Source: an uncultured Spirochaetales bacterium (GTDB lineage Bacteria > Spirochaetota > Spirochaetia > JABMQR01). Taken from it: a stretch of 64,000 nt of DNA. Under the pieces are notes generated by a model. The model did not search any database, was not told the origin of the DNA, and saw only the letters and a list, made by a program, of their open reading frames with translations. Shown here in pieces: positions 9,351-51,114 of the stretch. Within the stretch, counting starts at the first letter, position 1. Every line of letters starts with the position of its first letter. A program made the translations under genes and the position numbers. Location: positions 20,992-84,991 of the forward strand of contig CAZMOX010000001.1 in the NCBI GenBank assembly GCA_964567895.1. The letters run 5' to 3'.

Positions 9351-9357
9351 AAATCTT

Positions 9358-10281: not shown

Positions 10282-10284
10282 GCT

Positions 10285-12095: not shown

Positions 12096-12099
12096 ACTG

Positions 12100-13888: not shown

Positions 13889-13900
13889 ACCGCGCTGACT

Positions 13901-14755: not shown

Positions 14756-16254
14756 TTAACAGTCTCCGTATTAGATTTTATGAATAGTTTTTGCAATATT
14801 TCTTTCTGCTGGCTGCTACTATATCCAAATGAGCAAATTGCATTTTCAATACCCCTGATATCTGCATCATAGGGGTTCCTTAGCGCGATCAGCACAAGAT
14901 CATCAGAAAGCCTGGCTAGCTTCTCTATGAACTCTACCTGTGAGAGTGCAAGGTGTGCGTTTTCTGTAAAGATGATATTTCGTTTCCCTGCCGCAGTCTT
15001 TAACAGGGAAGCTGATTCTTCTTTAGAAATTTCCCTGCTGTAAACAGTTATAGGACACTTCAGGAACTCTCCGGTTCTGGTCACAGCCATGTGTATTCCC
15101 TGCAGGGTGTCTTCCACCAGTACAAGCCTGGCTGCTTTAACCGCAAAAATATTGTCAACCCTGTTTAAGGGGATAAGATTGCTCCTGTTTTTCCGTATTC
15201 TTACCGATTCTGAGGATATTCTGTCCATTTCAACCCTGTTGTCCTCAAATTCCAAACGGATATCAGCAGGGGGTTCTGTTTCTTTACGCTGCCTGAACAG
15301 ATTTTCAATCCTGCCCGCGGCCCCGGAGATTCTTTCCGCGAGCTTATCGTTTTCGACAATCTTCCCATCCAGAAACTTCCTGACTTGTATCTGTTTTTCC
15401 GTATTATCACAGAAAGAGATCATGTCCATCCCCGCTTCCAGTGTTTTTAATGCGATTTCTTCAGGGGGATAGAAATTGGACACTCCCCCCATATTGAGAT
15501 CATCTGCAATAAGAACTCCTTCATACTTTAATTCATCCCGGATCATATCTGTAAGGACTTCCCTGGAAACAGTTATAGGCTCCTTTGAAGTCTGGATTGC
15601 AGGTACATGGATATGTGTAGGCATCCAGCTTGGAGAATTAATAGCAAGAAAGGGCGCAAGTTCAGTCCGGTATATCTCATCCCTGGAAATATTGAGAATG
15701 GGCATATCCAGATGAGGATCGGTAACAACTCTTCCGATTCCGGGAAAGTGTTTCAGGCATGTTATGATCCCGCTCTCCCTCAAGCCTGCTGTAAACTTCG
15801 AAGCATACTCAATTACAGTATCCTTGTCCCTGGAAAAACTCCGAATACCGATACCCGGGTTCTGAGAATTATTGTTGATATCGACCACCGGCGCAAGGTT
15901 CCAGTCAATACCGACTGCCTTCATTTCTGATCCGAGTATTATTCCTGCTCTGTATGCATTGTTCGGATTCTCTGTAGATGCCAACGCCATGGCGCTGGGT
16001 GAAACAGTAAATCCCTTTGTAAGTCTTGTGACTATTCCTCCCTCCTGATCAATTGCTATGAGTGGTTTATAGCCAAGGAAGTCTGTAATTCCCCTGATAA
16101 AAGCTACAACCTGCTCTCTATCTTTTATATTTCGCCCAAACAGAATGACTGATCCCGGCCGTACTACCTCAAGCACTCTTTTCGCCGGATCATTAATTTC
16201 CGAGGAGGGTAATCCAATCATGAAAATTTTTCCGGTCAGCTCCTTCAAATCCAT
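14752..16254 (-). CDS. nagZ: beta-N-acetylhexosaminidase (glycoside hydrolase family 3)
   Basis: GH3 N-terminal motifs LIAIDQEGGIVTRL and KHFPGIGRVVTDPHLDMP. The protein is 500 aa. Confidence 0.85.
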   Translation of the reverse strand: MDLKELTGKIFMIGLPSSEINDPAKRVLEVVRPGSVILFGRNIKDREQVVAFIRGITDFLGYKPLIAIDQEGGIVTRLTKGFTVSPSAMALASTENPNNAYRAGIILGSEMKAVGIDWNLAPVVDINNNSQNPGIGIRSFSRDKDTVIEYASKFTAGLRESGIITCLKHFPGIGRVVTDPHLDMPILNISRDEIYRTELAPFLAINSPSWMPTHIHVPAIQTSKEPITVSREVLTDMIRDELKYEGVLIADDLNMGGVSNFYPPEEIALKTLEAGMDMISFCDNTEKQIQVRKFLDGKIVENDKLAERISGAAGRIENLFRQRKETEPPADIRLEFEDNRVEMDRISSESVRIRKNRSNLIPLNRVDNIFAVKAARLVLVEDTLQGIHMAVTRTGEFLKCPITVYSREISKEESASLLKTAAGKRNIIFTENAHLALSQVEFIEKLARLSDDLVLIALRNPYDADIRGIENAICSFGYSSSQQKEILQKLFIKSNTETVK

Positions 16255-16413
16255 TTTGGTATTGTAACATGAACATACGCATGTTACAATATATATTTTT
16301 ATAGATGGTAATTTGTTTTGAAATATATTTTTATAAGCTTTTTGTGTTCTGTTATTTCTGATCTGATCGATTCAGCTTCCTGTAAAAAAAACCATACTCT
16401 TTCAACAGCTGTT

Positions 16414-17490
16414 TCATGGGATCATTGTGCCTGAAATCCCCAGTCCCGGAGCTTCAGGCAGCGTTATTACAGTACCATGATATTCGGTACCACCTTTTTC
16501 CTTTTTCTCGCTGCAGAGAAGGGGCACATCAAGATCCACCTCCCGGACTACTGCTCTCGCCGCTGCCAAATGAGCAGCGGCGGTCAAGCCTGCATGGCTC
16601 TCCATCATTGATCCAACCATACAGAAAAGACCGGCTGTTTCTGCAATATCCGCTATTTTAACCGCATTGTAGATCCCCCCGGACTTCATAAGTTTGATGT
16701 TTATTCCGTCAGCCGCTCCCATATTAACGATCCTCAGAGCATCCGCAGGGGAAAAAACACTTTCGTCTGCTATCACCGGAACCGTCACCCTCTCTCTGAC
16801 ATAACGCATTCCTTCAAAATCATCCGCACCAACAGGCTGTTCTACAAAATCGAGCCCGATACCCTCATTCTGCATGAGGTTTACAATCTCTACCGCTTCT
16901 TTCGGTTTCCATCCCTGGTTTGCATCAATTCTGAGCCTTACATCCGAGCCTGCCGCTTCCCGGACAGCCTTAATTCTGGCTAAATCCATTTCGGTATTTC
17001 CGCCGACCTTGATTTTTAGTATTTTTACTCCCTGACGCACTGCTTCCATGCTCTCTTCTGCCATCTCCTCAGGTGAATTAAGGCTGATAGTAAGATCTGT
17101 AACAAGGGTGTTTCTGAATCCCCCCAGAAGCCTGTAGACCGGTGCTGAATAGAACTTTCCATACAGATCGTAAATGGCCATATCCACTGCAGCTTTCGCG
17201 GAAGTGTTTCCGGCCATGGAGCCGTTGATTTTCTGCATTATTATTTCCAGGTTTCTGATATCGAGTCCTACTATCCTGTCTATGATAAACTGTATACCTT
17301 CTGTTATAGAACCAGCTGTATCCCCTGTTATCACAGCAGTCGGGGCGGCGCCGCCGTACCCGGTTTTATCGGAGTCAGTGGTAATCTCGATCAGAATATT
17401 CTCAATGGATTCGAGGGTTCTCAAGGCAGTCTTGAATGGTCTTTTCAGACCTGTTGACATCCGACTAATTTTTACTCCTGTTATCAGCAT
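16414..17490 (-). CDS. enolase-superfamily dipeptide epimerase (L-Ala-D/L-Glu epimerase-like, MR/MLE family)
   Basis: 358 aa. The capping and barrel domains carry metal-binding acidic residues in the MR/MLE pattern (IDANQGW...DESV...), as in muropeptide-recycling epimerases. Confidence 0.7.
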   Translation of the reverse strand: MLITGVKISRMSTGLKRPFKTALRTLESIENILIEITTDSDKTGYGGAAPTAVITGDTAGSITEGIQFIIDRIVGLDIRNLEIIMQKINGSMAGNTSAKAAVDMAIYDLYGKFYSAPVYRLLGGFRNTLVTDLTISLNSPEEMAEESMEAVRQGVKILKIKVGGNTEMDLARIKAVREAAGSDVRLRIDANQGWKPKEAVEIVNLMQNEGIGLDFVEQPVGADDFEGMRYVRERVTVPVIADESVFSPADALRIVNMGAADGINIKLMKSGGIYNAVKIADIAETAGLFCMVGSMMESHAGLTAAAHLAAARAVVREVDLDVPLLCSEKKEKGGTEYHGTVITLPEAPGLGISGTMIP

Positions 17491-24680: not shown

Positions 24681-25967
24681 TTACAACCAGTATTTTTTCA
24701 TTCTGTCATTAAGCTGCCGGGTATATGCATCCCAATCCTCTATAGGATATTTTGCAAGACCCTCTTCACATGCCGCTTTTGCTACTGCTACCGCTTCCCA
24801 CTCAATTACACGTTTATCAAAAGGCTTCGGTACAATATAATCACGGCCAAAAGAAAATTTACGCCCACCGTAAGCAGCACTGATCTCTTCTGGAACTGGT
24901 TCTTTAGCAAGAGCAGCCAGTGCTTTTGCTGCTGCCATTTTCATCCCTTCAGAAATTTTTGTTGCTCTTACATCCATTGCCCCACGGAAAATAAAGGGAA
25001 ATCCAAGAACGTTGTTGATTTGGTTAGGGAAATCACTTCGTCCAGTAGCCATGATAACATCATCTCTGGTTGCCACTGCTGTCTCATATTTAATTTCAGA
25101 ATTAGGATTGCTCATAGCAAATACAATAGGATCTTTTGCCATGGAGAGCAGCATCTCAGGTGTTACACAATCTGCAACTGATAATCCCATAAATACGTCA
25201 GCTCCAACCATAGCTTCGGCAAGTGTTCTTGCGTCAGTTTCTACAGCCAGTTCTACCTTTTCAGGTGTCATCCGCTCAACTCGTCCTTTATAGATAACAC
25301 CCTTGCTGTCACACATGATAATATTTTCTCGTTTGGCGCCGGCAGCTTCAAACATCTTGCTGCAGGATACTCCCGCCGCACCGGTACCATTGAAAACAAT
25401 CTTTAAGTCTTCCATCTTTTTCCTGACTATCTCAGAAGCATTCAGGAGACCGGCTGTGGAAATAATAGCAGTACCATGTTGATCATCATGAAAAATTGGA
25501 ATATTACACTCTTTAATAAGAGTCTGCTCAATTTCAAAACATTCAGGAGCCTTAATATCCTCAAGGTTCACACCGCCAAAAGTAGGTTCAAGTAGTTTTA
25601 CCACTTCAATGATCTTCTTTGGATCCTTTGTATCTAATTCGATATCAAACACATCTATATCCGCAAATCTTTTAAAAAGAACCCCTTTCCCCTCCATAAC
25701 TGGTTTTGAGGCAAGAGCTCCCTGATCTCCAAGACCCAGAATTGCGGTACCATTAGAAATAACTGCAACCAAATTTCCTTTGGAAGTATACTTGTAGGCA
25801 TTCTCCGGATCAGCTGCTATTTCCATTACGGGCTTTGCAACGCCTGGAGTGTATGCCAATGAAAGGTCGTCAGCTGTCAGACAAGGTTTTGTCGGAACAA
25901 CTTCAATTTTTCCGGGAATTCCATCCATGCTGTGATATTTTAAAGCTTTCTCTTTCAGTTCATCCAT
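24681..25967 (-). CDS. NAD(P)-dependent malic enzyme
   Basis: Malic enzyme motifs include [39 protein letters not shown] and the NAD-binding FNGTGAAGV. Confidence 0.85.
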
Positions 25968-25993
25968 TATCCAATCTCCTGTTAATGTAGTTT

Positions 25994-27118
25994 TTATTCA
26001 AAATCGAAGGTGTAATCCATATCCCACCTGTCGCGAAGCTCAATCATTACCTTCTGCAGTGATGGCGGTACCGGACAGCCATGATCTTTACGATATTGCC
26101 ACGCAATATACTCTTTCTCCCCTGCAGTATAAATCTGCTCTTCCCCCGGAGCTTTTTTGGAATTTCGCACTTCCCGGCAAATAGTCCCGGCAATGCGTTT
26201 AAAAGTTTCCAATCCCATAAACCGTTCCGGATCAATTACTATGAAAAAGTGGCCCAGTGGATAGGGAATTTTATTACCATCTGCATCAAAACCATTCAGG
26301 TCTTTCAGGCAGCCTCCATCCTGGAGAGCGGCAGAGAGAATTTCTACTACCATTGAGTATCCATATCCCTTATACCCGCCGGTGGTTTCACCCAGTCCTC
26401 CCAGAGGAGCCAGAGCAGCCTTTCCTTTGGTCAGGTCAATAAGGATCTGTTTTGTATCAGTACGTGTGTTTCCATCATTTCCAATTACCCATCCGGCTGG
26501 AAGGTCTTTCCCGGAGCGCCCGTATACTTCAATTTTTCCACGTTGGGAAACTGATGTTGCACAATCCAGAATAAAGGGAAACTCTTCATCGGTGGGAAGC
26601 CCGAATGTTAACGGGTTGGTTCCCAGCATATTCTCAACTCCAAATGTCGGAGCTATCGACGGTCGGGCATTTGTACCGGTAATACCGATCATACCTGCTT
26701 CAGCTGCCATCAAAGTATAATATCCGGCAATTCCATAATGTGTAGAATTTCTTACCGCAACCATACTCATACCAAACTCTTTCGCCTTTTCAATTGCTAT
26801 TTCCATGGCTTTTTTTGAAACAACATGTCCCATCCCGTTGTTTCCATCCAGAACAGCTGCTGTTTTATCATCTTTCAAAATATCAATTTTTGTTTCCGGG
26901 TTAAGAATTCCGGCATCAATCCTATCAATATAGATTGGTTTAAGTCTGCCAATACCATGAGAATCTATTCCCCGCTTATCCGAGGCAATAAGTACATCAC
27001 AAATCACATCAGCATCTGCCTCAGGGATTCCTGATTTGACCAGAGCTTCCTTCATGAAACTTTCCAACACCTTAAAATCGACCCATACACAATCTTTATA
27101 TGCATCCTGATAAGCCAT
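25994..27118 (-). CDS. Ldh_2-family (malate / L-lactate / L-sulfolactate dehydrogenase type 2) oxidoreductase
   Basis: 374 aa. The N-terminal pattern [30 protein letters not shown] is characteristic of the Ldh_2 family. Confidence 0.7.
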
Positions 27119-27159
27119 GACAGCCTCCCTAATAGTGTGAACCTATAATACGTAAAGGT

Positions 27160-27945
27160 TCATTTCTGTACTCCAGCAAAAAGCAGCTCAACTCCCGCTT
27201 GGTGCAGCTCTTCTTCCGATAACATGTGCCCTGCTCCATGATCAGTAATAAGATAATCAATTTTTTCCAGAGCTGCTGTCTTAAAATTTGAAATAACTCC
27301 AATTTTACTGCTGTCAGCAACCACAATTACCGATCCTACTGTTTTCTCTATCATTTTCCGGGTCATCTCCGCTTCCTGCATAACAGGAGTAGTGAGGCCG
27401 TAGGTCAGACTGAATCCATCAACTCCGATTACAGCCTTATTTGCATAAATTCTATCCAAAGCCTGCAGTCCGACATCTCCGGTTACCGAGTGAGATTGAG
27501 GACGATAACTACCGCCAATAAAAAGGAGATCGAAAGCTGCTTCATCCGCTATCTGGGCAGCTCCGATATTATTGGTAATAATAGTTATTTTTTTACTCTT
27601 CAGTGCCTCAATAACAGCCTGAGTGGTGGATCCGCTATTTATAATAACCATGTCACCATCTTCAATAAGTGCTGCAGCCGTAAGGGCAATGAGTTCTTTT
27701 TCAGTCTTATTTACCAGCTCTTTTTGAGAAAACAGGGGTTCTACCGACATTGACTGTCTAAGCACAGCACCGCCATGAGTTCGTTCGAGATATCCCTGCT
27801 TTTCAAGCTGATCCAGATCTCTACGGATGGTAAGCACAGAGACATCCAGCTGTTCGCTTAATTCATTTACGCGTACGATTCCCTGTATTCGTATCTGCTC
27901 TGTAATCAATTTCTGTCTATCTGCAGGAATATGTCCCGATGACAT
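27160..27945 (-). CDS. DeoR/GlpR-family transcriptional regulator. The start is chosen at MSSGH, which has a GGAGGG ribosome-binding site; the ORF extends to 27978.
   Basis: HTH IVRVNELSEQLDVSVLTIRRDLDQLEKQGYLERTHGGAV plus a DeoR C-terminal sugar-phosphate-binding domain. Confidence 0.8.
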   Translation of the reverse strand: MSSGHIPADRQKLITEQIRIQGIVRVNELSEQLDVSVLTIRRDLDQLEKQGYLERTHGGAVLRQSMSVEPLFSQKELVNKTEKELIALTAAALIEDGDMVIINSGSTTQAVIEALKSKKITIITNNIGAAQIADEAAFDLLFIGGSYRPQSHSVTGDVGLQALDRIYANKAVIGVDGFSLTYGLTTPVMQEAEMTRKMIEKTVGSVIVVADSSKIGVISNFKTAALEKIDYLITDHGAGHMLSEEELHQAGVELLFAGVQK

Positions 27946-28037
27946 CTTTGTCCCTCCCAGTAATACCTGATAAGACATGGTTTTTTATGAACGTTTTTTA
28001 TCATTTATGTTCTATAGTTGTAGAATACAGAGTGTTG

Positions 28038-28094: not shown

Positions 28095-30488
28095 CTAAAT
28101 GTCCGGAGAAAAAAGTTCCAGCTGCCGCCCGTCAACAATAGCCTCAAAACTATCGTTCATGGCGAACAGCACACCATCAGCCAATGGTTTGATCTGCTTT
28201 TCGATGTAGTGGCGGTAATCAATATCTTTCGGTTCCATCTCGATAGGGACAGCTCCATTGGAAGTCATGATATAACTGATCTCCCTTAAGTGCCTGACCC
28301 CCTCGGGATCAAGCATTCGAACTGCCTTAATATGAGGCGGTGTTGTTTTCTCGTACTGCTCTGCACTTCTTCTCAGCCGTTTACGGTAGACCAGCAGATC
28401 ATCCATCTCACCATCCCACAATCTTTTAACAAACGATTTTATCCACAAGCGTATCTCCTGCTCCTGAAAAAATCGGGAAAAGAGCTCCTGCTGAAACTGT
28501 TTAGCCAGCTCTGTCCAGTCTGAACGTACAACTTCAAGCCCTTTATACTCGATCGTCCCATCGTCCAGCAGTCCTGCATACCGCTTTTTCGAACCTTCAG
28601 TTGAAGAACGTTTCGCGGGAAGAAAAAACTTCTCATAGTATTTCTCAAACTCCATCTCCAGCATCGACTCAACACCGAACTCTTCCAGGATTTTTCGACT
28701 GAAATAGGTATTTACCTGCTTCACTAATGTTATACCTGATTCCTCAGGGTTTTGCTGCTGACTGCTTTTTAACACGACAAACACCGAGTCTGTATCACCA
28801 TAAATCACCGTATACCCCTGAGCACGAATAAATTCTGCTGTGTTTTTTAGGATCCATTGGCCAGTTTCAGTGATAGATGCGGGAAGGTCTGCATGATAAA
28901 ACCTGCAGCCGGTAGTTCCCATAACTCCATAAAAACTATTCATCAAAATCTTAATTGCGGTAGAGAGATATGAGTCATGTTGGTTCTTTGCCTGTTCTCT
29001 CTTTTCCATAAGATGTTTTAGAAATTCAGGGAGAATATGATGGGTTTTGGAAAATTTTATTCCATTGGGCGTGGTAACGGTATCTGTATCTGTCTCTGCA
29101 TTAATCCTGGAGTAGGGGTCGATCGAGAATGTGCGGATAATAGTAGGATAGAGACTTTTGAAATCAAGCACTACTACATGGTGATACAGCCCGGGCAGTG
29201 AAGTGAATACATATCCGCCGGCAGCACGACCGCCAGAAACTATGTCATCTGTCTCAGGAGCAGCATATCCTTTCCTATGTATGCCCGGGAGCATTACATG
29301 ATCGAACGATGCCACGGACATGCTTATTCGATCCAGGGTAAGTCCGGTTATAAGACTGCGTGCCTTTATCTGCTCTATAAGACCGGTTTTTTTGAAAATT
29401 TCGGTAACAAGCACACAGTCTTCAAGATTATAGCGGGCCAGAGCCTCCTTGTCATATAAAAATCTGCGGGTAATTTCCTGAACCTTCTCCTCATTTGGTC
29501 TGATATCTTTCCCTTTGCCGAGAATTGCCTGAGCTACTGTCTCAAGGGTAAAATCATCAAACTTGAAAAACCCCATCCTCATATTTTGAGGACCGTCAAT
29601 AACCACCCTGCCCTCGATATCGGTAGAAAATATTCCGCTGCGTTTTGCTGATATCCTGACCGCTCTATTTCCCCGGCCAACTAAAAAGGGAATCTGAAGC
29701 AGTGCGCACTTATCAATAAGAAATTTCAGATCAAACCCAATTACATGCCAACCAATTATCAGGTCAGGATCCCATTCATTGAGTTCCTTGATAAAAGCAA
29801 GCAGGATATCCTTCTCTGTTGGAAGAATGATGGGTTTAATAGTTTTTTCATCTATTTTGTCAGAACTGCCGGGATCAGAAGTTTCTCCCACTACAAACAC
29901 TTTTTTCATTTCCTGATTTCCGTAAGTGCCCTGCATGGCTATGGAATAGAGATTTGTATTTTCGTTTTCAGGCTGACCAGTTTCGATATCTATTGAAAGC
30001 CAACTGAATTCCGGTAAGTACTCTGCAGGCTGCATCCGGGGATTAATCCAAACCGTAACATTTCCTTCTTTATGATGTTTGCCGCTAATTTCAACACTGC
30101 TGTTGATAAACCTCTCCATAATATACCTGTCGGCAGGACGTACATCTGATTCATAGGTTTTTATCTGGTGCATGCGAAGCTTTTTCCGGGCATTGTAGTA
30201 ATCATTCAGAGTTCTAAAATAGAGGGCATCAACCTTTTCGTGTTCAAAGGTTTCCAGCGGTACTTCTCTCCGAGTCATGCCTATAAGGGGGGGAAGTGTC
30301 GCATTTTGCGGAGATGTCGCAGGATGCGGATACAGTGCAGGACTATTTCTCACAAAAAAAAGTGGCATATGGGGTGTAATGACGATCCTGAACGATCCCG
30401 AATCGCTCCTGCCGTAGTAGTGAAGCTCACAATGTCCGTTTCTGTCTACTGCATGACGTGTGAGAATAAATCCTTTTTCAGTTTCCAT
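28095..30488 (-). CDS. polB: family B DNA polymerase (DNA polymerase II-like) with 3'-5' exonuclease domain
   Basis: Exo I motif FDIETG, polymerase motif A DFKSLYPTII, motif B KILMNSFYGVMG and motif C YGDTDSVFV. Length 797 aa. Confidence 0.85.
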   Translation of the reverse strand: METEKGFILTRHAVDRNGHCELHYYGRSDSGSFRIVITPHMPLFFVRNSPALYPHPATSPQNATLPPLIGMTRREVPLETFEHEKVDALYFRTLNDYYNARKKLRMHQIKTYESDVRPADRYIMERFINSSVEISGKHHKEGNVTVWINPRMQPAEYLPEFSWLSIDIETGQPENENTNLYSIAMQGTYGNQEMKKVFVVGETSDPGSSDKIDEKTIKPIILPTEKDILLAFIKELNEWDPDLIIGWHVIGFDLKFLIDKCALLQIPFLVGRGNRAVRISAKRSGIFSTDIEGRVVIDGPQNMRMGFFKFDDFTLETVAQAILGKGKDIRPNEEKVQEITRRFLYDKEALARYNLEDCVLVTEIFKKTGLIEQIKARSLITGLTLDRISMSVASFDHVMLPGIHRKGYAAPETDDIVSGGRAAGGYVFTSLPGLYHHVVVLDFKSLYPTIIRTFSIDPYSRINAETDTDTVTTPNGIKFSKTHHILPEFLKHLMEKREQAKNQHDSYLSTAIKILMNSFYGVMGTTGCRFYHADLPASITETGQWILKNTAEFIRAQGYTVIYGDTDSVFVVLKSSQQQNPEESGITLVKQVNTYFSRKILEEFGVESMLEMEFEKYYEKFFLPAKRSSTEGSKKRYAGLLDDGTIEYKGLEVVRSDWTELAKQFQQELFSRFFQEQEIRLWIKSFVKRLWDGEMDDLLVYRKRLRRSAEQYEKTTPPHIKAVRMLDPEGVRHLREISYIMTSNGAVPIEMEPKDIDYRHYIEKQIKPLADGVLFAMNDSFEAIVDGRQLELFSPDI

Positions 30489-30764: not shown

Positions 30765-31061
30765 ATGCCCCGATATCAAATACAGAGACGTGTTCGATCC
30801 TGCTCTCCAACCTATACCGTATTTAAACCCGCTTTTACCCCAGTAAAAAAACTGGAAAAAATAGTTATGACTCTTGATGAGCTTGAGGCCTTATGTCTAA
30901 TGGACTGCGAAGGTTTGTATCAAAAAGAGGCTGCAGGGAAAATGGGTGTATCCCGACAAACTTTTGGGAATATTTTGACAACTGCAAGAAAAAAGAGTAC
31001 CGAAATGCTGACAAAGGGCAGGGTTCTGGTAATTGAGGGCGGAAATGTCTGTTGTTGTTGA
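30765..31061 (+). CDS. DUF134 (UPF0251) family predicted DNA-binding protein
   Basis: The N-terminal MPRYQIQRRV...F.P and central LTLDELEALCLMDCEGLYQKEAAGKMGVSRQTFGNILTTARKK match the family pattern. Confidence 0.65.
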   Translation: MPRYQIQRRVRSCSPTYTVFKPAFTPVKKLEKIVMTLDELEALCLMDCEGLYQKEAAGKMGVSRQTFGNILTTARKKSTEMLTKGRVLVIEGGNVCCC

Positions 31062-31087
31062 CCTTTAAAATTGGATATAGTTAAAAT

Positions 31088-32632
31088 ATGAAAACATATG
31101 ATGCAGTTATCGTAGGTGCCGGTGTTATTGGCTGTGCAATTGCGCGAACTCTTGCCCAAACAAACCTCTCTCTATTGATTATTGAAAAAGAACCGGATAC
31201 CGGTTTCGGCATCAGCAGCAGAAACAGCGGGGTGGTGCATTCAGGTATTCACTATGCCCCAGGCTCAAACAGAGCTGTGTATAATGTCCGGGGTAACCGC
31301 ATACTGGAAGAACTCTGCAGCGAACTTAAGGTTCCCTACAAAAGATCCGGTAAAATAACAGTTGCCTTTTCCGATGAACAAGTGCACATATTAACAACAC
31401 TGCTGAAGCAGGGAACAGAGAATGGTGTACCCGGTATCAAACTGATCGATAAAAATGAGATGGAAATACTCCAACCGGGGACCGGGGGGAAAGCCGCACT
31501 TTATACCCCGTCAACTGGTATTGTCAGCCCATACGAACTTACTATCGCATTGGCAGAGAGTGCTTATGCGAATGGAGCAGAATTCAGGTTCAATCATACC
31601 GTTAAATCTGTTGATCTCCCCGATCCGGCACAACACAGAGAACATTTCCTTCTGCATACCGAGCATGTAGAAAGTTCCAGAACAAAAAGGATCTCCTATG
31701 CTGCTAAAGTTGTCATAAATGCCGCAGGCCTTGGTTCTGCCGATATAGCTAAAATGGCCGGAATTGATGAATACACAATCTACCCTTGCCGGGGTGAATA
31801 CTATGTCCTTGATAAAAGACTACGGAACTCACTAAATTTGTTAATATACCCTGTTCCCGGTGCTCATAGCAGCGGGCTGGGAATACATCTTACCAATACC
31901 GTTGATGGAAATATTCTTATCGGTCCCTCAAATGAATATATTATGGATGATGAAGATACTTCTACCACTATTAATATAATGGAGACACTCCGGGAGGAGG
32001 GGCATCATCTTCTGCCTACTTTGGGCGGTTCGGATTTTATCAGGAATTTTTCCGGTATTCGACCAAAGCTTGCTCCGCCGGAAGAGGGAGGTTTTCGGGA
32101 TTTTGTAATCGAATCGCGTTCGGATATTCCTGGTTTTATTAACCTTATGGGCATTGAGAGCCCCGGCCTTACCGCTTCACCTGCAATTGCTGAGAAGGTA
32201 AAGGTATTAGTAGGAAAGCTTATCCCACTGCAGAATCGGGAGAACATTGTACGAGGGCGACCTGTTATACACAATACTCCATTTACTGAAAAGTCTTTTT
32301 CCTCCTGTTCCAAGGAAGAAAAATCCAGGCTTATTTCACACAATCCCGACTACGGTTCTATTGTCTGCCGCTGTGAAGAAGTTACTTTAGCAGAAATTAA
32401 AGAAGCTGCTGCACGTACACTTGGTCCTGTTACTTTTGCAGGAATTAAATATCGCACCCGGGCTATGATGGGAAGATGTCAGGGGGGTTTCTGCCTACAG
32501 CGGTTAACTGAAATTCTCCGGGAATCGTTTGGTATTACCGTAGAAGAACAAACCCTGAAAGGTCCAGGCACAGAACTTTTCATGGGTTCGTTAAGAACAT
32601 CTCAAACACCCGATATAAAAGAGTCACTATGA
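31088..32632 (+). CDS. FAD-dependent oxidoreductase of the anaerobic glycerol-3-phosphate dehydrogenase GlpA-like type, with a C-terminal BFD-like [2Fe-2S] domain
   Basis: Dinucleotide-binding fold YDAVIVGAGVIGCAIAR at the N-terminus, and BFD cysteines CRCEEVTLAEI...GRCQGGFC. Confidence 0.75.
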   Translation: MKTYDAVIVGAGVIGCAIARTLAQTNLSLLIIEKEPDTGFGISSRNSGVVHSGIHYAPGSNRAVYNVRGNRILEELCSELKVPYKRSGKITVAFSDEQVHILTTLLKQGTENGVPGIKLIDKNEMEILQPGTGGKAALYTPSTGIVSPYELTIALAESAYANGAEFRFNHTVKSVDLPDPAQHREHFLLHTEHVESSRTKRISYAAKVVINAAGLGSADIAKMAGIDEYTIYPCRGEYYVLDKRLRNSLNLLIYPVPGAHSSGLGIHLTNTVDGNILIGPSNEYIMDDEDTSTTINIMETLREEGHHLLPTLGGSDFIRNFSGIRPKLAPPEEGGFRDFVIESRSDIPGFINLMGIESPGLTASPAIAEKVKVLVGKLIPLQNRENIVRGRPVIHNTPFTEKSFSSCSKEEKSRLISHNPDYGSIVCRCEEVTLAEIKEAAARTLGPVTFAGIKYRTRAMMGRCQGGFCLQRLTEILRESFGITVEEQTLKGPGTELFMGSLRTSQTPDIKESL

Positions 32633-33948
32633 AAAAAAACCTGAATTTTTCATTAGAGAATGAGCCTCAATTTGCTGTTGCCATAATTGGGGCAGGGCCG
32701 GCGGGGTTGGCCGCTGCTTTCGGGGCGGCAAAAGCGGGTGCTGAATCTGTCGTAATTATTGAACGGAACTATCAACCTGGAGGAATTCTCAACCAGTGTA
32801 TTCACGATGGTTTTGGTTTACACCGATATAATGAATCTCTCTCCGGGCCGGAATATGCTGCCCGGGAAAATAATATTTTACAGAATAAAGAGATAATTGA
32901 TAAAATCACCCTGTTAGCCGGAACCTTTGTTCAAGATCTCGTACCGGAAAATCAGGGTTTTTCGCTTGCAGTTATGTCTTCAGGATCTTTTAGGGTAATA
33001 AGAGCGGCGGCTGTTGTTTTAGCTATGGGTTGTCGGGAGCGAACCGCCGGTGCAATCTCTTTACCAGGAACCAGGCCTGCCGGAATCTTTACTGCAGGAA
33101 CAGCCCAACGCCTAATGAATATGCAGAATATAAGTGTTGGTAAACGTGCTGTTATTATTGGATCGGGTGATATTGGACTAATAATGGCCAGAAGGCTTAC
33201 CCTGGAAAGCGCTGACGTTGCCGCGGTTACTGACATACAGCCCTATCCCGGGGGACTCGACCGGAATGTTAGACAATGTCTTCATGATTTTAATATTCCG
33301 CTTATGCTATCCACCGGAGTCGTTAAAGTACATGGGAAAAAACGGGTTGAAGGAATTACTGTTGCCCCCCTGGATACTTTAGGTAATTTGGAATTATCAT
33401 CATCAACCTATATTTCCTGTAATACCATTCTACTCTCAGTAGGTCTTATACCGGAACATGAACTGGCAAGGGGTGCCGGTGCGGCACTGGATACATCCAC
33501 ACAAGGTCCAATAGTTGACCAGCATCTTATGACAACAGTTCCAGGGTTGTTCGCCTGCGGAAATGTACTGCAGGTGCATGATCTTGTCGATTTTGTATCG
33601 GAAGAAGCGGAGTATGCCGGATCTTGTGCGTCTAACAAGGTACTTACCCCACCCCGGCTCTCTATAGAAACCACTCAGGCCAACAGCACCACTTTGTCTT
33701 TAAAAGTAGGATCCAATTTGCGTTATGTGCTTCCTCATACCATTACAGAACCAGGCCGCATAACTCTCTCTATGCGTGTAACCGTACCGGAAGTAAATTT
33801 CCGTGTCCATGTAGCACGTCTGGAAAAAAGTGCTGACAGGATCCTGTTAACAAAAACATTCAGCAGAGTGTCACCATCTGAGATGTTACGATTTACCTTT
33901 AACTGTGATACAGTTGAGCCCTTGGAGGTGTATGGTGAATCTTTCTGA
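32629..33948 (+). CDS. FAD/NAD(P)-binding pyridine nucleotide-disulfide-type oxidoreductase (second subunit of the triad)
   Basis: Two dinucleotide-binding folds, AIIGAGPAGLAAAFGAA and VIIGSGDIGLIMARRL. There is a 4-bp overlap with the upstream gene. Confidence 0.7.
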   Translation: MKKNLNFSLENEPQFAVAIIGAGPAGLAAAFGAAKAGAESVVIIERNYQPGGILNQCIHDGFGLHRYNESLSGPEYAARENNILQNKEIIDKITLLAGTFVQDLVPENQGFSLAVMSSGSFRVIRAAAVVLAMGCRERTAGAISLPGTRPAGIFTAGTAQRLMNMQNISVGKRAVIIGSGDIGLIMARRLTLESADVAAVTDIQPYPGGLDRNVRQCLHDFNIPLMLSTGVVKVHGKKRVEGITVAPLDTLGNLELSSSTYISCNTILLSVGLIPEHELARGAGAALDTSTQGPIVDQHLMTTVPGLFACGNVLQVHDLVDFVSEEAEYAGSCASNKVLTPPRLSIETTQANSTTLSLKVGSNLRYVLPHTITEPGRITLSMRVTVPEVNFRVHVARLEKSADRILLTKTFSRVSPSEMLRFTFNCDTVEPLEVYGESF

Positions 33949-34393
33949 TCAGGAAAAACATATCGTAGAAGAACTCACCTGCATTGTTTGCCCAAAAAGT
34001 TGTGTTCTCAGGGTTGAGAAAGACAAAATATCCGGGACAATTACCGCAATACATAATGCAAATTGCCAGCGGGGAATCGCTTGGGTTACCCAGGAACTGC
34101 TTCATCCAACCAGAAGTGTCTGCAGCTCAGTACTGGTTGAAAATGGAACCGAACCGCTGACAGGGGTCAGAACAAATCAGCCAGTTTCCAGGGATGATGT
34201 GTTTAAGGTTATGGGGGCAATAAAGAGTTGTCGAATCTCTGCGCCGGTAGCTATTGGTGCAATAGTACTGGAAAATCCCGGCGGTGTTCCCTGCAGAGTC
34301 ATCGCAACAAGAGCGGTTGGAAGAGAAGATCGGAAGCTGGAGACGGGAAGCCGGAAGATGAAGAGAAAAATTTTAATACAACTTCCAACTTGA
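33932..34393 (+). CDS. DUF1667 domain protein (third subunit of the triad). The start is chosen at MVNLSD, which has a GGAGG ribosome-binding site.
   Basis: The Cys motif CIVCPKSCVLRV is typical of DUF1667. It is co-linear with the two oxidoreductase genes. Confidence 0.6.
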   Translation: MVNLSDQEKHIVEELTCIVCPKSCVLRVEKDKISGTITAIHNANCQRGIAWVTQELLHPTRSVCSSVLVENGTEPLTGVRTNQPVSRDDVFKVMGAIKSCRISAPVAIGAIVLENPGGVPCRVIATRAVGREDRKLETGSRKMKRKILIQLPT

Positions 34394-34505: not shown

Positions 34506-35912
34506 CTAGCCCCTTGTTTCTCTTGCCAACAACTTTAATCTCTGAAGATCATCACGCGTCTGCCCCCGCCATTCTGTCGGAAAAAAAAGGTTATTATGAT
34601 AGAGAGGCTCTTCAGCAAGCGGAAAATCGCTGGCTTTTACGGCATCCTCCCACATTGGGGTTCCGGGAACAGGTGAATATTCTGCAATAGATACACTTAC
34701 TCCGGCTTCAGCAGCAACCCTGATTGAAGCTTCTACCTCATCAGCATGCTGACCGGGAAGTCCTGTAAGGATATATACAGGAAGCTCCTTTTTTGTAAAC
34801 CCGGCTTTGAGCAGCATCTCTATAGAGTCATGGAATTGCATCGTTGAGAATTTATGATCATGAAGCAGATGGAACTCACTGGAGGCTGATTCAAAACCCA
34901 TTCGTATCTCCTGGAAACCGGCTCTCTTCATAAGCCGGGCACTCTCCTCATCTATATACCGGACATGTACTGCATTGGGTGTATAGAAAGAGAATGGTAT
35001 ACCGGATTGAATAACCCGCTCCAGGAAAGGAAGCAGAACCTTCTCTTTATTAACCAAAAGAGCATCATCATAGAATCCAAAATGTCTTATCCCTTTTCTC
35101 TGGTAGAGATTTCGAATAAGCGTAAAGGCTTCATCAGGATTACCACTGTCAAAAATTGGGTTTATCAAATTCGAGGCACAATAGTCGCAGTGCAGCGGAC
35201 AGCCGATGTTGAGCCGAATCACTCCGGCTCCCTGACCCCAGAAATCTGCACCTTTTCCAGGTTCTACATATGTAGGGATCGACGGATAGCGTGGGATCGA
35301 CCCGGAAGGCATCGGAAACCCATTTACTGATAGAAAGGCTTGTATTGGATCCGGACTATCCCCTTTCACTACAAGATCTGCTCCGGTTACTCGTTCGGCA
35401 TGTTCGGGCATAAGTGAGGCATAGATTCCACCAACCAGTATCCTGGTTTTCGGTACCAGCTTTCGAACAATTTCTGCAGTCTCTACAACTCCCTGATACC
35501 AATAGGTCATTCCGGATGTAATGCAGACTATATCAGGTTGTGATTTCCTGATTTTATCTGCCAAAACTTCTCTCAGAATTCCATACCTTCCAAATATTCG
35601 GGGGATGCTCCTGATGCTCTCAGGGAGTGGTATATGCTGCTTAAAAAACTTTCCCGTTCCATTCTGCTTTCGTTTGGGTTTTCCAAGAACTTGTTCGGTT
35701 TCCGGATCCTGCCAGTTGAGGGCATTGATATAGGCTGTATCGTATCCAGCCTCTCGAAACCAGGTCTCAAGCCGTATAAGGCCATAGGGTTTGAGAAAAA
35801 GATCATAGAGTGCAAAATCATATATAGGGGGTTGGATGAATAATACTTTGGGTTTTTGATTTACTGCAGATTCCATGATATGAAAGATACCAGAGGCAAA
35901 TTTAATAATCAA
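34506..35912 (-). CDS. B12-binding-domain radical SAM protein
   Basis: The CxxxCxxC motif GCPLHCDYC follows an N-terminal cobalamin-binding-like Rossmann region. Length 468 aa. Confidence 0.75.
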   Translation of the reverse strand: MIIKFASGIFHIMESAVNQKPKVLFIQPPIYDFALYDLFLKPYGLIRLETWFREAGYDTAYINALNWQDPETEQVLGKPKRKQNGTGKFFKQHIPLPESIRSIPRIFGRYGILREVLADKIRKSQPDIVCITSGMTYWYQGVVETAEIVRKLVPKTRILVGGIYASLMPEHAERVTGADLVVKGDSPDPIQAFLSVNGFPMPSGSIPRYPSIPTYVEPGKGADFWGQGAGVIRLNIGCPLHCDYCASNLINPIFDSGNPDEAFTLIRNLYQRKGIRHFGFYDDALLVNKEKVLLPFLERVIQSGIPFSFYTPNAVHVRYIDEESARLMKRAGFQEIRMGFESASSEFHLLHDHKFSTMQFHDSIEMLLKAGFTKKELPVYILTGLPGQHADEVEASIRVAAEAGVSVSIAEYSPVPGTPMWEDAVKASDFPLAEEPLYHNNLFFPTEWRGQTRDDLQRLKLLARETRG

Positions 35913-46887: not shown

Positions 46888-47616
46888 TTGAGATTTAAAC
46901 TGAATCCTGTTACTGTCCCAACTCCTAAAAATATATTCGTAAAACAAATTGAAGAACTTATTCTCTCGGGAGAAGTAGACCCTGGAGAAAAAATACCGTC
47001 GGAACGTATCCTTGCAGGTAAAATGGGAATATCCAGACCGGTTGTACACGAAGGATTGATCGAGCTTGCCAGCAAAGGGCTGGTTACCATGAAACCACGA
47101 CACGGCTGCTATATAAATGATTATAGGAAATCCGGCTCTTTTGAGTTGCTAAACGCTCTCTATCACTACAATTCCGGCGAATTGACAGAAGAAATCCGGG
47201 ATGGATTGGAAGAACTCAGGACTCTCATTGGTATTGATGCAATCCGGAAAATTACCCAAAAGCCGGAAATAAATAAAATTGCGGATGAACTTACGTCCAT
47301 TATGAAAGAGGGAGAAATTCTGAAACCCGGTCAGCCTGCTGCGAAAGCAGAAAATGACTATCGGTTTCATTATACAGTCCTGTATCATAGCGGAAATATG
47401 ATTTATCCCCTGATACTCAACTCAGCCAGAGGAGTTTATCTGAACCTTCTTGAGCATTTTTTCCGTACTCCGGATATTGATATATCGGTAAATAAAATCA
47501 AGAAACAATTAATAGATTCCATGACTGCGGGAAATACTGATACTACTAGTGGGCTAATGAAAAAACTCACATCATATAGAACCTATTTTCAGGAATCATA
47601 TAATGCATCCACGTAA
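46888..47616 (+). CDS. GntR-family transcriptional regulator (FadR/FCD-type C-terminal domain)
   Basis: HTH SERILAGKMGISRPVVHEGLIELASKGLV followed by a helical C-terminal domain. Length 242 aa. Confidence 0.75.
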   Translation: MRFKLNPVTVPTPKNIFVKQIEELILSGEVDPGEKIPSERILAGKMGISRPVVHEGLIELASKGLVTMKPRHGCYINDYRKSGSFELLNALYHYNSGELTEEIRDGLEELRTLIGIDAIRKITQKPEINKIADELTSIMKEGEILKPGQPAAKAENDYRFHYTVLYHSGNMIYPLILNSARGVYLNLLEHFFRTPDIDISVNKIKKQLIDSMTAGNTDTTSGLMKKLTSYRTYFQESYNAST

Positions 47617-49411
47617 ACCAGCCGTAAAAACACTTCACAACATATCAAGAAAACTCAAAAAAAAAAGGTTATCCAGGGTAAAAATCGAAACCTGTTATGA
47701 TGGTAAATCTATCAGGCTTTCCGGGAAAGTCCAAACCTGGCAACAAAAAGTTGAGGCAGGAAATGTAGCTGCCTCTCTTTCCCGAAAATGTAAGGGAATC
47801 GTAAATGACATCATCGCTGAATCAGTGCATGAGCCCCGGTTAAAAACACCCGGATCCGGCGATTTTGATAAAACCCTGGATGGTCTGTCGTATGATGCGG
47901 TAATAATCGGAGCCGGAGTAATCGGCTGTTTCATTGCGAGAGAACTTGCACGCTATGAATTATCTGTCGCAGTCCTGGAAAAAGAGACAGATGTAGCAAT
48001 GCATGCTTCCGGAAGAAACGATGGAATGATTCATCCCGGATTTGCACCCAAACCGGGAACCTTGAAGGCAATGTACAACAGCAAGGGCAACAGCATGTAC
48101 CCGGCAATAGCTAAAGAACTTGATATTGAGTATCGGCAATGTGGATCTATCCTCTTGTTTTCATCATCCTGGATGCGTCTGCTTGTACCGTTTATAAAAT
48201 ACCGATGCAGGAGAAACGGGGTTTCCGGAAACTACCGGTATATTACATGTATGCAAGTCCGGAACCTGGAACCTCATGTAACGCATAAACAGAAAGGCGG
48301 TTTTTATTTCCCCACTGCCGGGATTGTATCGCCTTTTCAGATAACTATCGCTTGTGCGGAACATGCAGCACAGAATGGTGCTGTTTTCCATAGAAATACC
48401 TTTGTAACCGGGTTTAAAAACCTGAACAGAAAAAACAAAAGGAAAATTACAGGAATTATTACCAACCATGGGATTATCAGGGCCAATGTTATTATCAACG
48501 CGGCAGGGATATGGGCAGATTACATTGCAGGTATGGCTGATGATCAATTCTTTTCCCTTCATGGAAGAAAAGGAACCGATGCAATACTCGATAAAAAAAC
48601 CGGCAGATACCAAAAGCATATAATGGCAATGCCGTCTTTATTGAAAACGTCGGGTAACCACACCCACTCAAAAGGTGGGGGGATAGTCGTTTGCATTGAG
48701 GGGAATACCCTGTTGGGACCTACAGTAGAGGAAATCCCGGATAGGGAAGATTATTCCACGCATAAAAATGAATTTATAAAACTGGAAAAGCATTTGTCCC
48801 TCAATACCCGGCTGAAAAAGAGTGATATAATTAACTACTACTCAGGTGTGCGTGCGGCAACATGGAAAGAAGATTTTATCGTGGAAAAATCTGAGCGGAT
48901 ACCAAACCTGGTTCATGCCGCCGGCATACAATCACCCGGCCTTGCAAGTGCTCCTGCTATAGCTGTTGATATCCGCAAAATGGTCCTGGATATCCTTTCC
49001 ACAGAAAGGGTCGAAAAAGTTGGAAAAACTGATCCAATTCCACTGAAACAAAACTATATTCCCAGCCGTCAACATCTGCCTGTTCTTAAACTCCTTTCAG
49101 ACGATGAGAAAAAAGCGTTAATCAGGAAAGACCCGCTTTACGGCAATATTATCTGCAGATGTGAGGAGATTTCTGAGGGGGAAGTCCGGGACGCACTCCA
49201 TTCATCACTACCGGCTGTTACCATTGACGGAATAAAACGGCGTACCCGGGCTGGAACAGGGAGGTGTCACGGAGGATTTTGCCTATCAAATGTCCTGGAG
49301 ATAATCAGCATTGAAACAGGAATCCCCCAGTCACAGATCACCAGAAAGGGTGGAGATTCAAGAATAATCATCCGGGACATTGGGGGAAAAGAGGGCAGAT
49401 ATGGGGACTGA
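47603..49411 (+). CDS. GlpA-like FAD-dependent oxidoreductase with C-terminal BFD [2Fe-2S] domain and a ~100-aa BON-like N-terminal extension. Paralog of 31088-32632.
   Basis: The motifs YDAVIIGAGVIGCFIAREL at aa ~108 and CRCEEISEGEV...GRCHGGFC match the first triad. The extension IETCYDGKSIRLSGKVQTWQQKVEAGNVAASL resembles a BON domain. Confidence 0.7.
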   Translation: MHPRKPAVKTLHNISRKLKKKRLSRVKIETCYDGKSIRLSGKVQTWQQKVEAGNVAASLSRKCKGIVNDIIAESVHEPRLKTPGSGDFDKTLDGLSYDAVIIGAGVIGCFIARELARYELSVAVLEKETDVAMHASGRNDGMIHPGFAPKPGTLKAMYNSKGNSMYPAIAKELDIEYRQCGSILLFSSSWMRLLVPFIKYRCRRNGVSGNYRYITCMQVRNLEPHVTHKQKGGFYFPTAGIVSPFQITIACAEHAAQNGAVFHRNTFVTGFKNLNRKNKRKITGIITNHGIIRANVIINAAGIWADYIAGMADDQFFSLHGRKGTDAILDKKTGRYQKHIMAMPSLLKTSGNHTHSKGGGIVVCIEGNTLLGPTVEEIPDREDYSTHKNEFIKLEKHLSLNTRLKKSDIINYYSGVRAATWKEDFIVEKSERIPNLVHAAGIQSPGLASAPAIAVDIRKMVLDILSTERVEKVGKTDPIPLKQNYIPSRQHLPVLKLLSDDEKKALIRKDPLYGNIICRCEEISEGEVRDALHSSLPAVTIDGIKRRTRAGTGRCHGGFCLSNVLEIISIETGIPQSQITRKGGDSRIIIRDIGGKEGRYGD

Positions 49412-50753: not shown

Positions 50754-51114
50754 CAAAGAAAAAGAAATTTTTTGTATACGGTGCCCGAAAGGATGCCTTA
50801 TGCATGTAATTATGCGAAAATCGGGTATAGAAGTAACAGGGGCTGAATGCAGAAATGGTATAACTTATGCGGAGTCGGAAATCATTTGCCCTGTGAGGCT
50901 GCTTACCACAACCGTAAAAACTGCTTTTCCCAGACAACCAAGACTGCCGGTTAAAACTTCAGGGGAAATCCCTCTTAGTAAGTTTCCTGAAGTTCTTAGG
51001 AAGGCTGGTGAAATACTTGTGATAACCGCTCTCCAGCCCGGGGATATAGCAGTAAAAGATATCACTGAGAATGGTATTCATCTTATTTGCACAGGAGGCA
51101 TCGATAATGACTGA
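50743..51114 (+). CDS. DUF1667 domain protein (paralog of 33932-34393)
   Basis: Contains CIRCPKGCLMHV. 123 aa. Confidence 0.65.
   Translation: MMDSKEKEIFCIRCPKGCLMHVIMRKSGIEVTGAECRNGITYAESEIICPVRLLTTTVKTAFPRQPRLPVKTSGEIPLSKFPEVLRKAGEILVITALQPGDIAVKDITENGIHLICTGGIDND

Follow-up and report, generated by a model that had tools for sequence, protein, structure and literature searches.

The proteins TK1393 (a glycerol-3-phosphate (G3P) dehydrogenase), TK1392 ('NOX') and TK1391 ('MOX', a DUF1667 protein) of Thermococcus kodakarensis form a soluble complex, according to Koga et al. 2019 as summarised in a preprint (bioRxiv 10.1101/2024.02.29.582781). The same preprint places this GlpTk-NOX-MOX gene cluster also in T. 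maritima and C. perfringens, with a fusion protein in Giardia. In Pseudoclostridium thermosuccinogenes the cluster has been placed between a G3P-responsive antiterminator and a glycerol kinase (PMC7282089). Outside Thermococcus, proteins combining a DAO domain with a BFD [2Fe-2S] domain have been treated, as a whole cluster, as G3P dehydrogenases; one Caloramator protein is weakly active on G3P and most others are inactive (PMC8491902). Here we compare with these systems two three-gene sets (triads, genes A-B-C) of an uncultured Spirochaetales bacterium. Both lie in a stretch of 64,000 nt from contig CAZMOX010000001.1, which we call the window and whose positions serve for all coordinates. Both triads are of the GlpTk-NOX-MOX architectural type. 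That architecture is already known; what appears to be new, judging by sequence and gene context, is two variants of it. On balance we favour the view that the two have diverged in substrate specificity: triad 1, with a pocket that we call Y-type, would act on a 2-hydroxy-dicarboxylate, and triad 2, with a D-type pocket, on a phosphate ester in partnership with a flavoenzyme resembling alkyl-dihydroxyacetone-phosphate (alkyl-DHAP) synthase (AGPS). The comparison suggests that neither triad is the ordinary glycerol enzyme.

The six proteins concerned are encoded as follows.

31088-32632, + strand: A1, DAO plus C-terminal BFD [2Fe-2S] domain, 514 aa, Y-type pocket S47 H51 Y254 L264 H267 R325
32629-33948, + strand: B1 ('NOX' subunit), two dinucleotide-binding folds, 439 aa, Pyr_redox_2 E 1.1e-30
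33935-34393, + strand: C1 ('MOX' subunit), N-terminal CxxCxxxC...C motif plus DUF1667, PF07892 E 4e-22
47603-49411, + strand: A2, BON-like N-terminal domain (about residues 5-68) plus DAO and BFD, 602 aa, D-type pocket D140 H144 x K357 G360 R417
49380-50753, + strand: B2, two dinucleotide-binding folds, 457 aa, Pyr_redox_2, alternative ATG start at 49401
50743-51114, + strand: C2, CxxCxxxC...C motif plus DUF1667 (Pfam), 123 aa

An earlier note on this DNA, made from the letters alone, had described the same three-gene architecture at 31088-34393 and 47603-51114, and our open reading frame (ORF) lists and Pfam searches agree: both triads are intact, with DAO (PF01266) and Fer2_BFD (PF04324) in A, Pyr_redox_2 in B and DUF1667 in C. 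The motifs it quoted are all in the translations as well. The BFD cysteines read CRCEE...GRCQGGFC in A1 (C427, C429, C464 and C469) and CRCEE...GRCHGGFC in A2, and the four are kept in every aligned A homologue. Each B protein has two GxGxxG-type motifs (AIIGAGPAG and VIIGSGDIG in B1, LIIGGGPAG and IILGSGDIG in B2), and the CxxCPKxC of the DUF1667 subunits is CIVCPKSC in C1 and CIRCPKGC in C2. For C1 the mechanical ORF list gives a start at 33905; we use 33935 (152 aa), the start called for this gene on identical metagenome contigs. The B and C ORFs overlap or abut on the same strand directly downstream of A in both triads, the start of B1 overlapping the stop of A1 by 4 nt, and most related loci with enough sequence keep the order A-B-C, while a few have no B or C, or have A and B fused. 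Our one guide to operon structure is the overlap of the ORFs, which suggests that each triad is transcribed together; promoter and terminator scans at both loci gave no informative signal.

Between triads 1 and 2 the identity in BLASTP is 35% for A (E 5e-88), 42% for B (E 6e-98) and 30% for C (E 2e-8). This similarity is far above background, as the earlier note had expected of the pairwise alignment, and at this level the triads are ancient paralogues. A tblastn search found exactly two triad copies within the window. Several independent metagenome contigs encode A1 and A2 with 100% identity, and both proteins have homologues over their full length, their nearest named relatives being in metagenome-assembled genomes (MAGs) of Spirochaetales/Spirochaetia. 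Hence neither triad is a decayed duplicate. Recent duplication and a pseudogene were also considered, the earlier note having raised a recent untranslated duplicate; they are rejected by the 30-42% identity and by the intact, widely conserved orthologues of both copies.

What distinguishes the two A proteins is the substrate pocket. In Drosophila L-2-hydroxyglutarate dehydrogenase (dmL2HGDH) the substrate is contacted by Ser88, His92, Tyr289, Leu299, His302 and Arg393, the exchanges Y289A and H302A abolish activity, and Mycoplasma GlpO has only part of this contact set (PMC10726252). We aligned the corresponding positions of A1, A2, their database relatives, E. coli LhgD, Bp3253, the GlpO of Mycoplasma pneumoniae (MpGlpO) and the triads from plasmid and genome records. 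Three types, sharply set apart, were found.

Y-type, S-H-Y-L-H-R: A1, 119 of 119 A1-family matches, LhgD and Bp3253
K-type, S-H-F-K-(L/I/V)-R: MpGlpO, 119 of 119 Clostridia-type matches and 71 A proteins of plasmid- or genome-derived loci
D-type, D-H-x-K-G-R: A2 (D-H-M-K-G-R) and 120 of 120 A2-family matches

Neither window protein has the K-type pocket, whose Lys aligns with that of GKG in MpGlpO: A1 reads S-H-Y-L-H-R, and A2 keeps the Lys and the Arg with two other positions changed. The complete set of six L2HGDH contacts is present in A1 and not in A2. In a neighbour-joining tree of the DAO domain the three types form groups with bootstraps of 92 (K), 87 (Y) and 100 (D), and all BFD-bearing proteins together with MpGlpO are split from LhgD and Bp3253 at a bootstrap of 100. 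The B and C sequences group in the same way as A, so the triads diverged as units. On this evidence the BFD-bearing A subunits are three ancient clades, of which Y and D are each conserved across phyla and K is missing from the window. This tree, taken with the Y pocket, suggests that the Y clade has probably retained its L2HGDH-like pocket from the ancestor and that the Lys-containing pockets are derived.

Proteins with DAO and BFD domains are at present named 'glycerol-3-phosphate dehydrogenase' or 'LhgO' without rule. The names are even crossed. A K-type protein of Caloramator mitchellensis (P0274, A0A0R3JS23) is 'L-2-hydroxyglutarate oxidase LhgO' in NCBI, and Y-type proteins, with the L2HGDH-like pocket, are called 'glycerol-3-phosphate dehydrogenase' by JGI. 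A pocket code of six residues by which three functional clades can be told apart would put thousands of annotations right. We had meant to anchor the K pocket to the assayed protein of C. mitchellensis; this was dropped, since the P0274 retrieved is its paralogue A0A0R3JS23 and not A0A0R3K2G2.

The three types also differ in their linkage to glycerol genes. Locus counts given here and below are samples from genome and metagenome scans, so that proportions are not censuses. No glpK, glpF or glpP was found by tblastn within the 64-kb window. Among the matches listed, one or more of these genes flank 26 of 71 K-type loci and none of 16 Y-type loci (Fisher p = 0.002, computed with the Y-type count entered as 17), while D-type loci have GlpK in 1 of 38 and GlpP or GlpF in 0 of 38. 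The GlpKs adjoining K-type triads keep all six glycerol contacts of E. coli GlpK. The known GlpTk-NOX-MOX examples are glpK-linked, whereas the window triads lack that link and belong to two other clades with other pocket residues.

The triads can also be compared with better known enzymes. The Thermococcus TK1393-TK1392-TK1391 set resembles the window triads in its A-B-C order and in the DAO plus BFD protein, the flavoprotein of pyridine-nucleotide-disulfide type and the DUF1667/Fe-S protein; A2 differs from the known examples by its extra N-terminal BON-like domain. In E. coli GlpABC, GlpA too joins a DAO-type FAD domain to a BFD [2Fe-2S] domain, but its partners GlpB and GlpC (CCG) are absent from the triads, which have B (Pyr_redox_2) and C (DUF1667) instead. 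The description of the A proteins as GlpA-like, in the earlier note, is thus apt for the BFD domain; it does not extend to the whole protein, for which the GlpA model gives 149 bits (A1) and 120 bits (A2) against an NCBIfam cut-off of 553, or to the partners. The top NCBIfam model for both is type 2 GlpO, at 240 bits for A1 and 216 bits for A2 (cut-off 460), and none of the six triad proteins reaches any NCBIfam equivalog threshold. MpGlpO (4x9m) has the pocket S-H-F-K-I-R, like the K-type triads, and its Lys and Arg are kept in A2. It is, however, an oxidase with neither a BFD domain nor partner subunits; A1 does not have its Lys, and in A2 a loop is inserted, Ser is replaced by Asp and Ile/Leu by Gly. 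For B1 and B2 the top NCBIfam match is the SoxA family (sarcosine oxidase alpha), and A1 matches 1y56_B and SoxB structures. P. horikoshii PDH1 (1y56) and heterotetrameric sarcosine oxidase likewise pair a DAO-family subunit with a larger flavoprotein of two dinucleotide folds, but they use amine substrates and have neither a BFD domain nor a DUF1667 subunit. A search of PDB with C1 returned no sequence relative. In two K-type loci A and B are apparently fused as single ORFs (L030, 1045-3870, 941 aa; L054, 9995-12433, 812 aa), which recalls the A-B-C fusion of Giardia.

The cofactor motifs observed in the triads and the reconstituted Thermococcus complex together suggest a path for the electrons. 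A 2-hydroxy compound would be oxidised at the FAD of the A subunit, the conserved His acting as the base, a role that has been proposed for it in MpGlpO and L2HGDH. Electrons would then pass from this FAD to the [2Fe-2S] cluster of the BFD domain, to a Cys4 cluster of C and to the FAD of B, and from there to NAD(P)+ or another soluble acceptor.

We consider triad 1 first. All six dmL2HGDH contacts are present in A1 and invariant in 119 of 119 members of its clade, and A1 has no counterpart of the phosphate-binding Lys common to K-type proteins and MpGlpO. Its top PDB relative is Bp3253 (PDB 3dme; 187 bits, TM 0.90), ahead of GlpO. The AlphaFold model of A1 (pLDDT 83.5) has 3dme, 4x9m and 8w7f as top Foldseek matches. 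E. coli LhgD, Drosophila and human L2HGDH and Bp3253 have the six substrate contacts and the catalytic His in common with the A1 clade. LhgD and L2HGDH consist of one DAO domain each and hand their electrons to quinone or an unknown acceptor, whereas A1 has a BFD domain and two partner subunits and branches with BFD-bearing proteins.

The neighbours of other Y-type triads, again among the matches listed, are as follows. LarA-family genes adjoin them in four loci (L018, L019, L021 and L022). LarA homologues are 2-hydroxyacid racemases, with the signature GHK in malate racemase and NQT in 2-hydroxyglutarate racemase (PMC7583248, PMC11770544). TRAP transporters (DctM/DctP) occur in L018, L019 and L020, GntR/FCD regulators are found nearby, L024 has a SatP-type carboxylate channel, and an HpaB-family protein and succinyl-CoA-ligase-like genes adjoin the triad in four Desulfobacterales-type loci. 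Such neighbours indicate 2-hydroxy-dicarboxylates and not glycerol. In L022 (13166-14593, a Thermoplasmatales archaeon) a Fer4 protein (4Fe-4S dicluster) and a CCG-domain protein follow the triad and might offer the electrons another way out, in the manner of GlpC, LutA or HdrD. In L020 (6770-11032, a Burkholderiales MAG) the triad is directly followed by a stand-alone LhgD-like protein of 368 aa, which has the same six pocket residues and no BFD domain. Pocket and neighbours taken together, triad 1 most likely oxidises an L-2-hydroxy-dicarboxylate.

The surroundings of triad 1 in the window are these.

24681-25967, - strand: malic enzyme, in one co-directional string (24681-27978) with the next two
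25994-27118, - strand: Ldh_2-family dehydrogenase
27160-27978, - strand: DeoR regulator
28095-30488, - strand: family-B DNA polymerase, 797 aa, inserted between that string and DUF134/triad 1; there is none at this place in L010
30765-31061, + strand: DUF134 small putative helix-turn-helix regulator (PF02001 E 4.6e-21), 26 nt upstream of A1
34506-35912, - strand: B12-binding radical SAM protein, convergent with triad 1, a conserved neighbour in L010

As the earlier note said, a DUF134 regulator precedes triad 1 and no kinase accompanies it. The DeoR, Ldh_2 and malic enzyme genes are also divergent from the triad in L010, the closest syntenic Y-type locus. DUF134 lies downstream of the triad in L010 and was not seen at Y-type loci other than these two. 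In L066 (4852-13069, a Sediminispirochaeta MAG) a K-type triad lies among glpK and the genes for DeoR, malic enzyme and Ldh_2. We had taken the DeoR/Ldh_2/malic enzyme context as evidence for a hydroxyacid substrate and have downgraded it for this reason: the neighbourhood of triad 1 does not discriminate, and its functional link is uncertain. Perhaps one type of triad was exchanged for another within a slot inherited from ancestral spirochaetes. B12-binding radical SAM genes stand beside triads of different types (the window; L010, 11591-12937; L098, 5295-6872; L012, 13816-15362), a recurrence that may be coincidental.

Besides L066, several observations weigh against this reading of triad 1. 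The pocket comparison transfers six residues from homologues that are 26-38% identical, and the alignment left out TK1393 and Caloramator A0A0R3K2G2, the sole characterised BFD-bearing proteins. In Foldseek against PDB, Bp3253, MpGlpO and L2HGDH all match A1 at TM 0.78-0.90, so comparison of folds cannot decide specificity. A1 reaches 216 bits with the NCBIfam LhgO model (NF008726, cut-off 299), over model positions 1-269 only, and the Y clade stands outside the LhgD/L2HGDH clade, from whose members LhgD and Bp3253 it is split with 100% bootstrap; hence A1 may be said to work like L2HGDH and not to be a member of its family. DeoR regulators usually sense sugar phosphates. Finally, three of the four LarA-like neighbours carry the malate-racemase signature (G.HK) and one the 2-hydroxyglutarate-racemase signature (N.QT).

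The last point leads to an alternative, namely that triad 1 is an L-malate or tartrate dehydrogenase that works with Ldh_2 and malic enzyme in the catabolism of C4-dicarboxylates and not on L-2-hydroxyglutarate. The racemase signatures, the TRAP DctP/DctM transporters and the malic enzyme and Ldh_2 genes beside the triad in the window and in L010 would all suit it. However, all six pocket positions are as in strictly L-2-hydroxyglutarate-specific enzymes, dmL2HGDH is inactive on L-malate (PMC10726252), one LarA neighbour is of the 2-hydroxyglutarate type, and the Ldh_2-malic enzyme pair flanks a K-type triad as well. We regard this alternative as rather unlikely. For an L-2-hydroxy-dicarboxylate enzyme, then, L-2-hydroxyglutarate would be our best guess from the pocket, with L-malate or tartrate, as indicated by the neighbours, as the alternative.

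Malate and lactate dehydrogenases inevitably form L-2-hydroxyglutarate as a by-product. To our knowledge, the known dehydrogenases for it are all quinone- or oxygen-dependent. Triad 1 would permit a quinone- and oxygen-independent oxidation of an L-2-hydroxy-dicarboxylate in an anaerobe. If the Y-type assignment is true, such triads are candidates for the other enzyme that strict anaerobes would need for L-2-hydroxyglutarate or related L-2-hydroxy-dicarboxylates. The literature searched contains no description of a BFD-bearing L-2-hydroxyacid dehydrogenase complex.

Triad 2 differs from triad 1 in both its A protein and its company. Members of the A2 family are about 580 aa long, with a conserved N-terminal extension of about 90 aa. 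The match of this N-terminus in A2 to Pfam BON (PF04972) is weak (E 0.0017, 19.1 bits, cut-off 27), and some A2 homologues have faint precomputed BON matches. In the AlphaFold model of A2 (pLDDT 86) it consists of H5-20, E27-31, E36-40, H46-59 and E65-68, all at pLDDT >90, an alpha-beta-beta-alpha-beta topology that we take to be that of BON. The D-type pocket keeps the phosphate-binding Lys and Arg of G3P oxidase and adds an invariant Asp and Gly. As far as its residues can be read, triad 2 most likely oxidises G3P, or an analogue that is longer or 1-substituted, and yields a ketone of DHAP type. The other genes of its same-strand string are these.

46888-47616, + strand: GntR-family regulator with FadR_C domain (Pfam), first gene of the string
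51071-52666, + strand: FGGY-family kinase, not GlpK by NCBIfam and contact-residue comparison
52682-54451, + strand: alkyl-DHAP-synthase-like flavoprotein of the VAO family (PDB 2uuu 218 bits, 4bby 194 bits)
54551-55417, + strand: SDR oxidoreductase, near the end of the string
55404-56636, + strand: serine-palmitoyltransferase/BioF/Kbl-like enzyme, last gene of the string

The presence of a GntR regulator and an FGGY kinase at this triad was correctly reported in the earlier note. We compared seven D-type neighbourhoods, six taken by exact protein and that of the window. The order FadR-type GntR-A-B-C-FGGY-VAO flavoprotein is kept in five of the seven, and a GntR regulator holds the same position in L005, L007, L097 and L099. 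The module of L005 is that of a cultured species, Spirochaeta isovalerica. A wider sample from the metagenome scan comprised 38 D-type loci with at least 6.5 kb downstream. Among the matches listed, the AGPS-like flavoprotein occurs in 35 of the 38 and a non-GlpK FGGY kinase in 20. Other recurrent neighbours are TetR regulators (at least 14 loci), flavodoxin, DAGK_cat lipid kinases (L099, L150, L151 and L158) and, in L099, a PlsC-type acyltransferase. Many loci with a D-type triad and an AGPS-like gene come from human-gut metagenome assemblies (L103, L104, L109, L126, L128, L136, L151, L158 and others), so the module is common in gut anaerobes. The pair of SDR and serine-palmitoyltransferase-like genes (54551-56636) is not conserved beside the other D-type triads examined and is therefore probably a lineage-specific addition. 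The second enzyme of this pair, an alpha-oxoamine synthase, scores 491 bits with NF047600, below the cut-off of 640; the pair may point to a spirochaete that makes sphingoid bases or related lipids.

The kinase scores 231 bits with the XylB model (cut-off 380) and 134 bits with the GlpK model (cut-off 590). It is 27% identical to E. coli YgcE (193 bits) and 24% to GlpK (82 bits). Of the GlpK contacts R83, E84, W103, Y135, D245 and F270, E84 is replaced by D, and Y135 and F270 are lost. By these scores and residues it is not a glycerol kinase. In the flavoprotein, the HHH loop (526-528; SHHHGVG), the Tyr of GANLYFIF and the Arg of FRLSD align with the corresponding residues of AGPS (2uuu, 4bby) and are common to both. 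The catalytic signature of AGPS is thus intact in the alignment and the activity is predicted from it. For bacterial members of the AGPS-like group we know of no activity.

The flavoprotein is also 27% identical to E. coli YgcU. In E. coli K-12 (NC_000913.3, 2892657-2903374; L096) YgcE (FGGY) and YgcU (AGPS-like, with the HHH loop) are encoded together with the GlpP-like antiterminator YgcP and with ETF/ETF-QO-like genes. The kinase and flavoprotein of triad 2 have a parallel here, but the partners in E. coli are ETF-type genes and not a DAO-BFD triad. The M. tuberculosis cluster glpD1-TetR-Rv2251-Rv2252 is, we presume, another near system. Neither the BON-bearing D clade and its AGPS-like linkage nor an association of FGGY with AGPS was found described in the literature searched. 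If the link holds, it would offer an entry point to the bacterial AGPS homologues and to the orphan E. coli ygcE/ygcU, and possibly to anaerobic ether-lipid metabolism, human-gut bacteria included.

In the reading that we prefer, the phosphate ester would be supplied to triad 2 by the non-GlpK FGGY kinase, and the DHAP-type ketone would be used, or produced, by the presumably co-transcribed AGPS-like flavoenzyme. A connection with lipids would be plausible. As an alternative, triad 2 might belong to a soluble polyol or sugar-alcohol pathway like that of Brucella EryA/EryB, acting for example on erythritol-4-phosphate, with no lipid link. The kinase is nearest to xylulokinase, AI-2 kinase and YgcE types, and its pocket is modified and probably larger. 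In A2 the Lys and Arg are kept, and the changes of Ser to Asp and of Leu/His to Gly could fit extra hydroxyls; GntR/UTRA regulators also occur at some D-type loci. Yet the kinase is found in 20 of 38 loci as compared with 35 of 38 for the AGPS-like enzyme, and the latter keeps the residues by which AGPS exchanges acyl and alkyl groups on DHAP. Among the genes that recur nearby are regulators of FadR_C and TetR type, DAGK_cat lipid kinases and a PlsC-type acyltransferase. We saw no transporter, isomerase or aldolase of the kinds usual in polyol catabolism. A polyol pathway is therefore doubtful, although worth keeping in mind. The suggestion of another polyol phosphate in the earlier note is likewise possible for triad 2, but the most faithful partner there is the AGPS-like flavoenzyme and not the kinase.

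A bolder suggestion can also be made. The D-type triad, the FGGY kinase and the AGPS-type flavoenzyme might form an oxygen-independent pathway of alkyl-glycerol ether lipids. The kinase would turn an alkyl- or acyl-glycerol into a 1-substituted glycerol-3-phosphate, the dehydrogenase, with its BON domain as a membrane tether, would oxidise this to alkyl- or acyl-DHAP, and the AGPS-like enzyme would carry out an alkyl/acyl exchange. Such a pathway could lead from DHAP to ether lipids or, run backwards, split the ether bond with no need of the O2-dependent monooxygenase. The opened pockets would fit: A2 has Gly at the position of His302 and small residues at that of Tyr289, and the kinase has lost Tyr135 and Phe270. 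The FadR_C/TetR regulators, the DAGK_cat and PlsC genes nearby and the abundance of D-type loci in gut and sediment anaerobes would fit as well. The window itself encodes neither an acyl-DHAP acyltransferase nor a fatty-acyl reductase. We offer this pathway as a long shot.

It is improbable, finally, that both triads are G3P dehydrogenase isoenzymes differing only in regulation or electron acceptor, as the automatic annotations have it: they do share the architectural family of the reconstituted Thermococcus complex, JGI names relatives of both A proteins 'glycerol-3-phosphate dehydrogenase', type 2 G3P oxidase is in either case the top NCBIfam model, the same syntenic slot holds a K-type triad in L066 and a DeoR (GlpR-family) regulator lies near triad 1, but A1 lacks the K-type Lys and has instead the Tyr and His with which L2HGDH binds the carboxylate, both invariant in the A1 clade, glpK is nearly absent from the Y- and D-type loci listed (0 of 16 and 1 of 38), the kinase beside triad 2 is not GlpK, and all equivalog cut-offs are missed by a wide margin. 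The earlier note had seen in the two triads duplicate G3P dehydrogenase-like complexes of diversified specificity, for example for G3P and for another polyol phosphate. They are true paralogues, but they represent two ancient clades not linked to glpK and no duplication within the G3P lineage; and the kinase-less triad 1, with its full L2HGDH pocket and no phosphate-binding Lys, does not look like the plain G3P enzyme. Diversified specificity is still the best reading, though not in the form of G3P plus a polyol phosphate.

Two other features of the window deserve mention. At 573-4340 (+ strand) it encodes a protein of 1255 aa that consists almost wholly of ankyrin repeats, which is unusual for a bacterium. 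At 8193-17490 there is a cell-wall recycling group with an AnmK kinase, a beta-lactamase-family protein, a GH3 glycosidase and an MR/MLE-family (dipeptide-epimerase-like) enzyme, and an ABC transporter of sugar type adjoins it.

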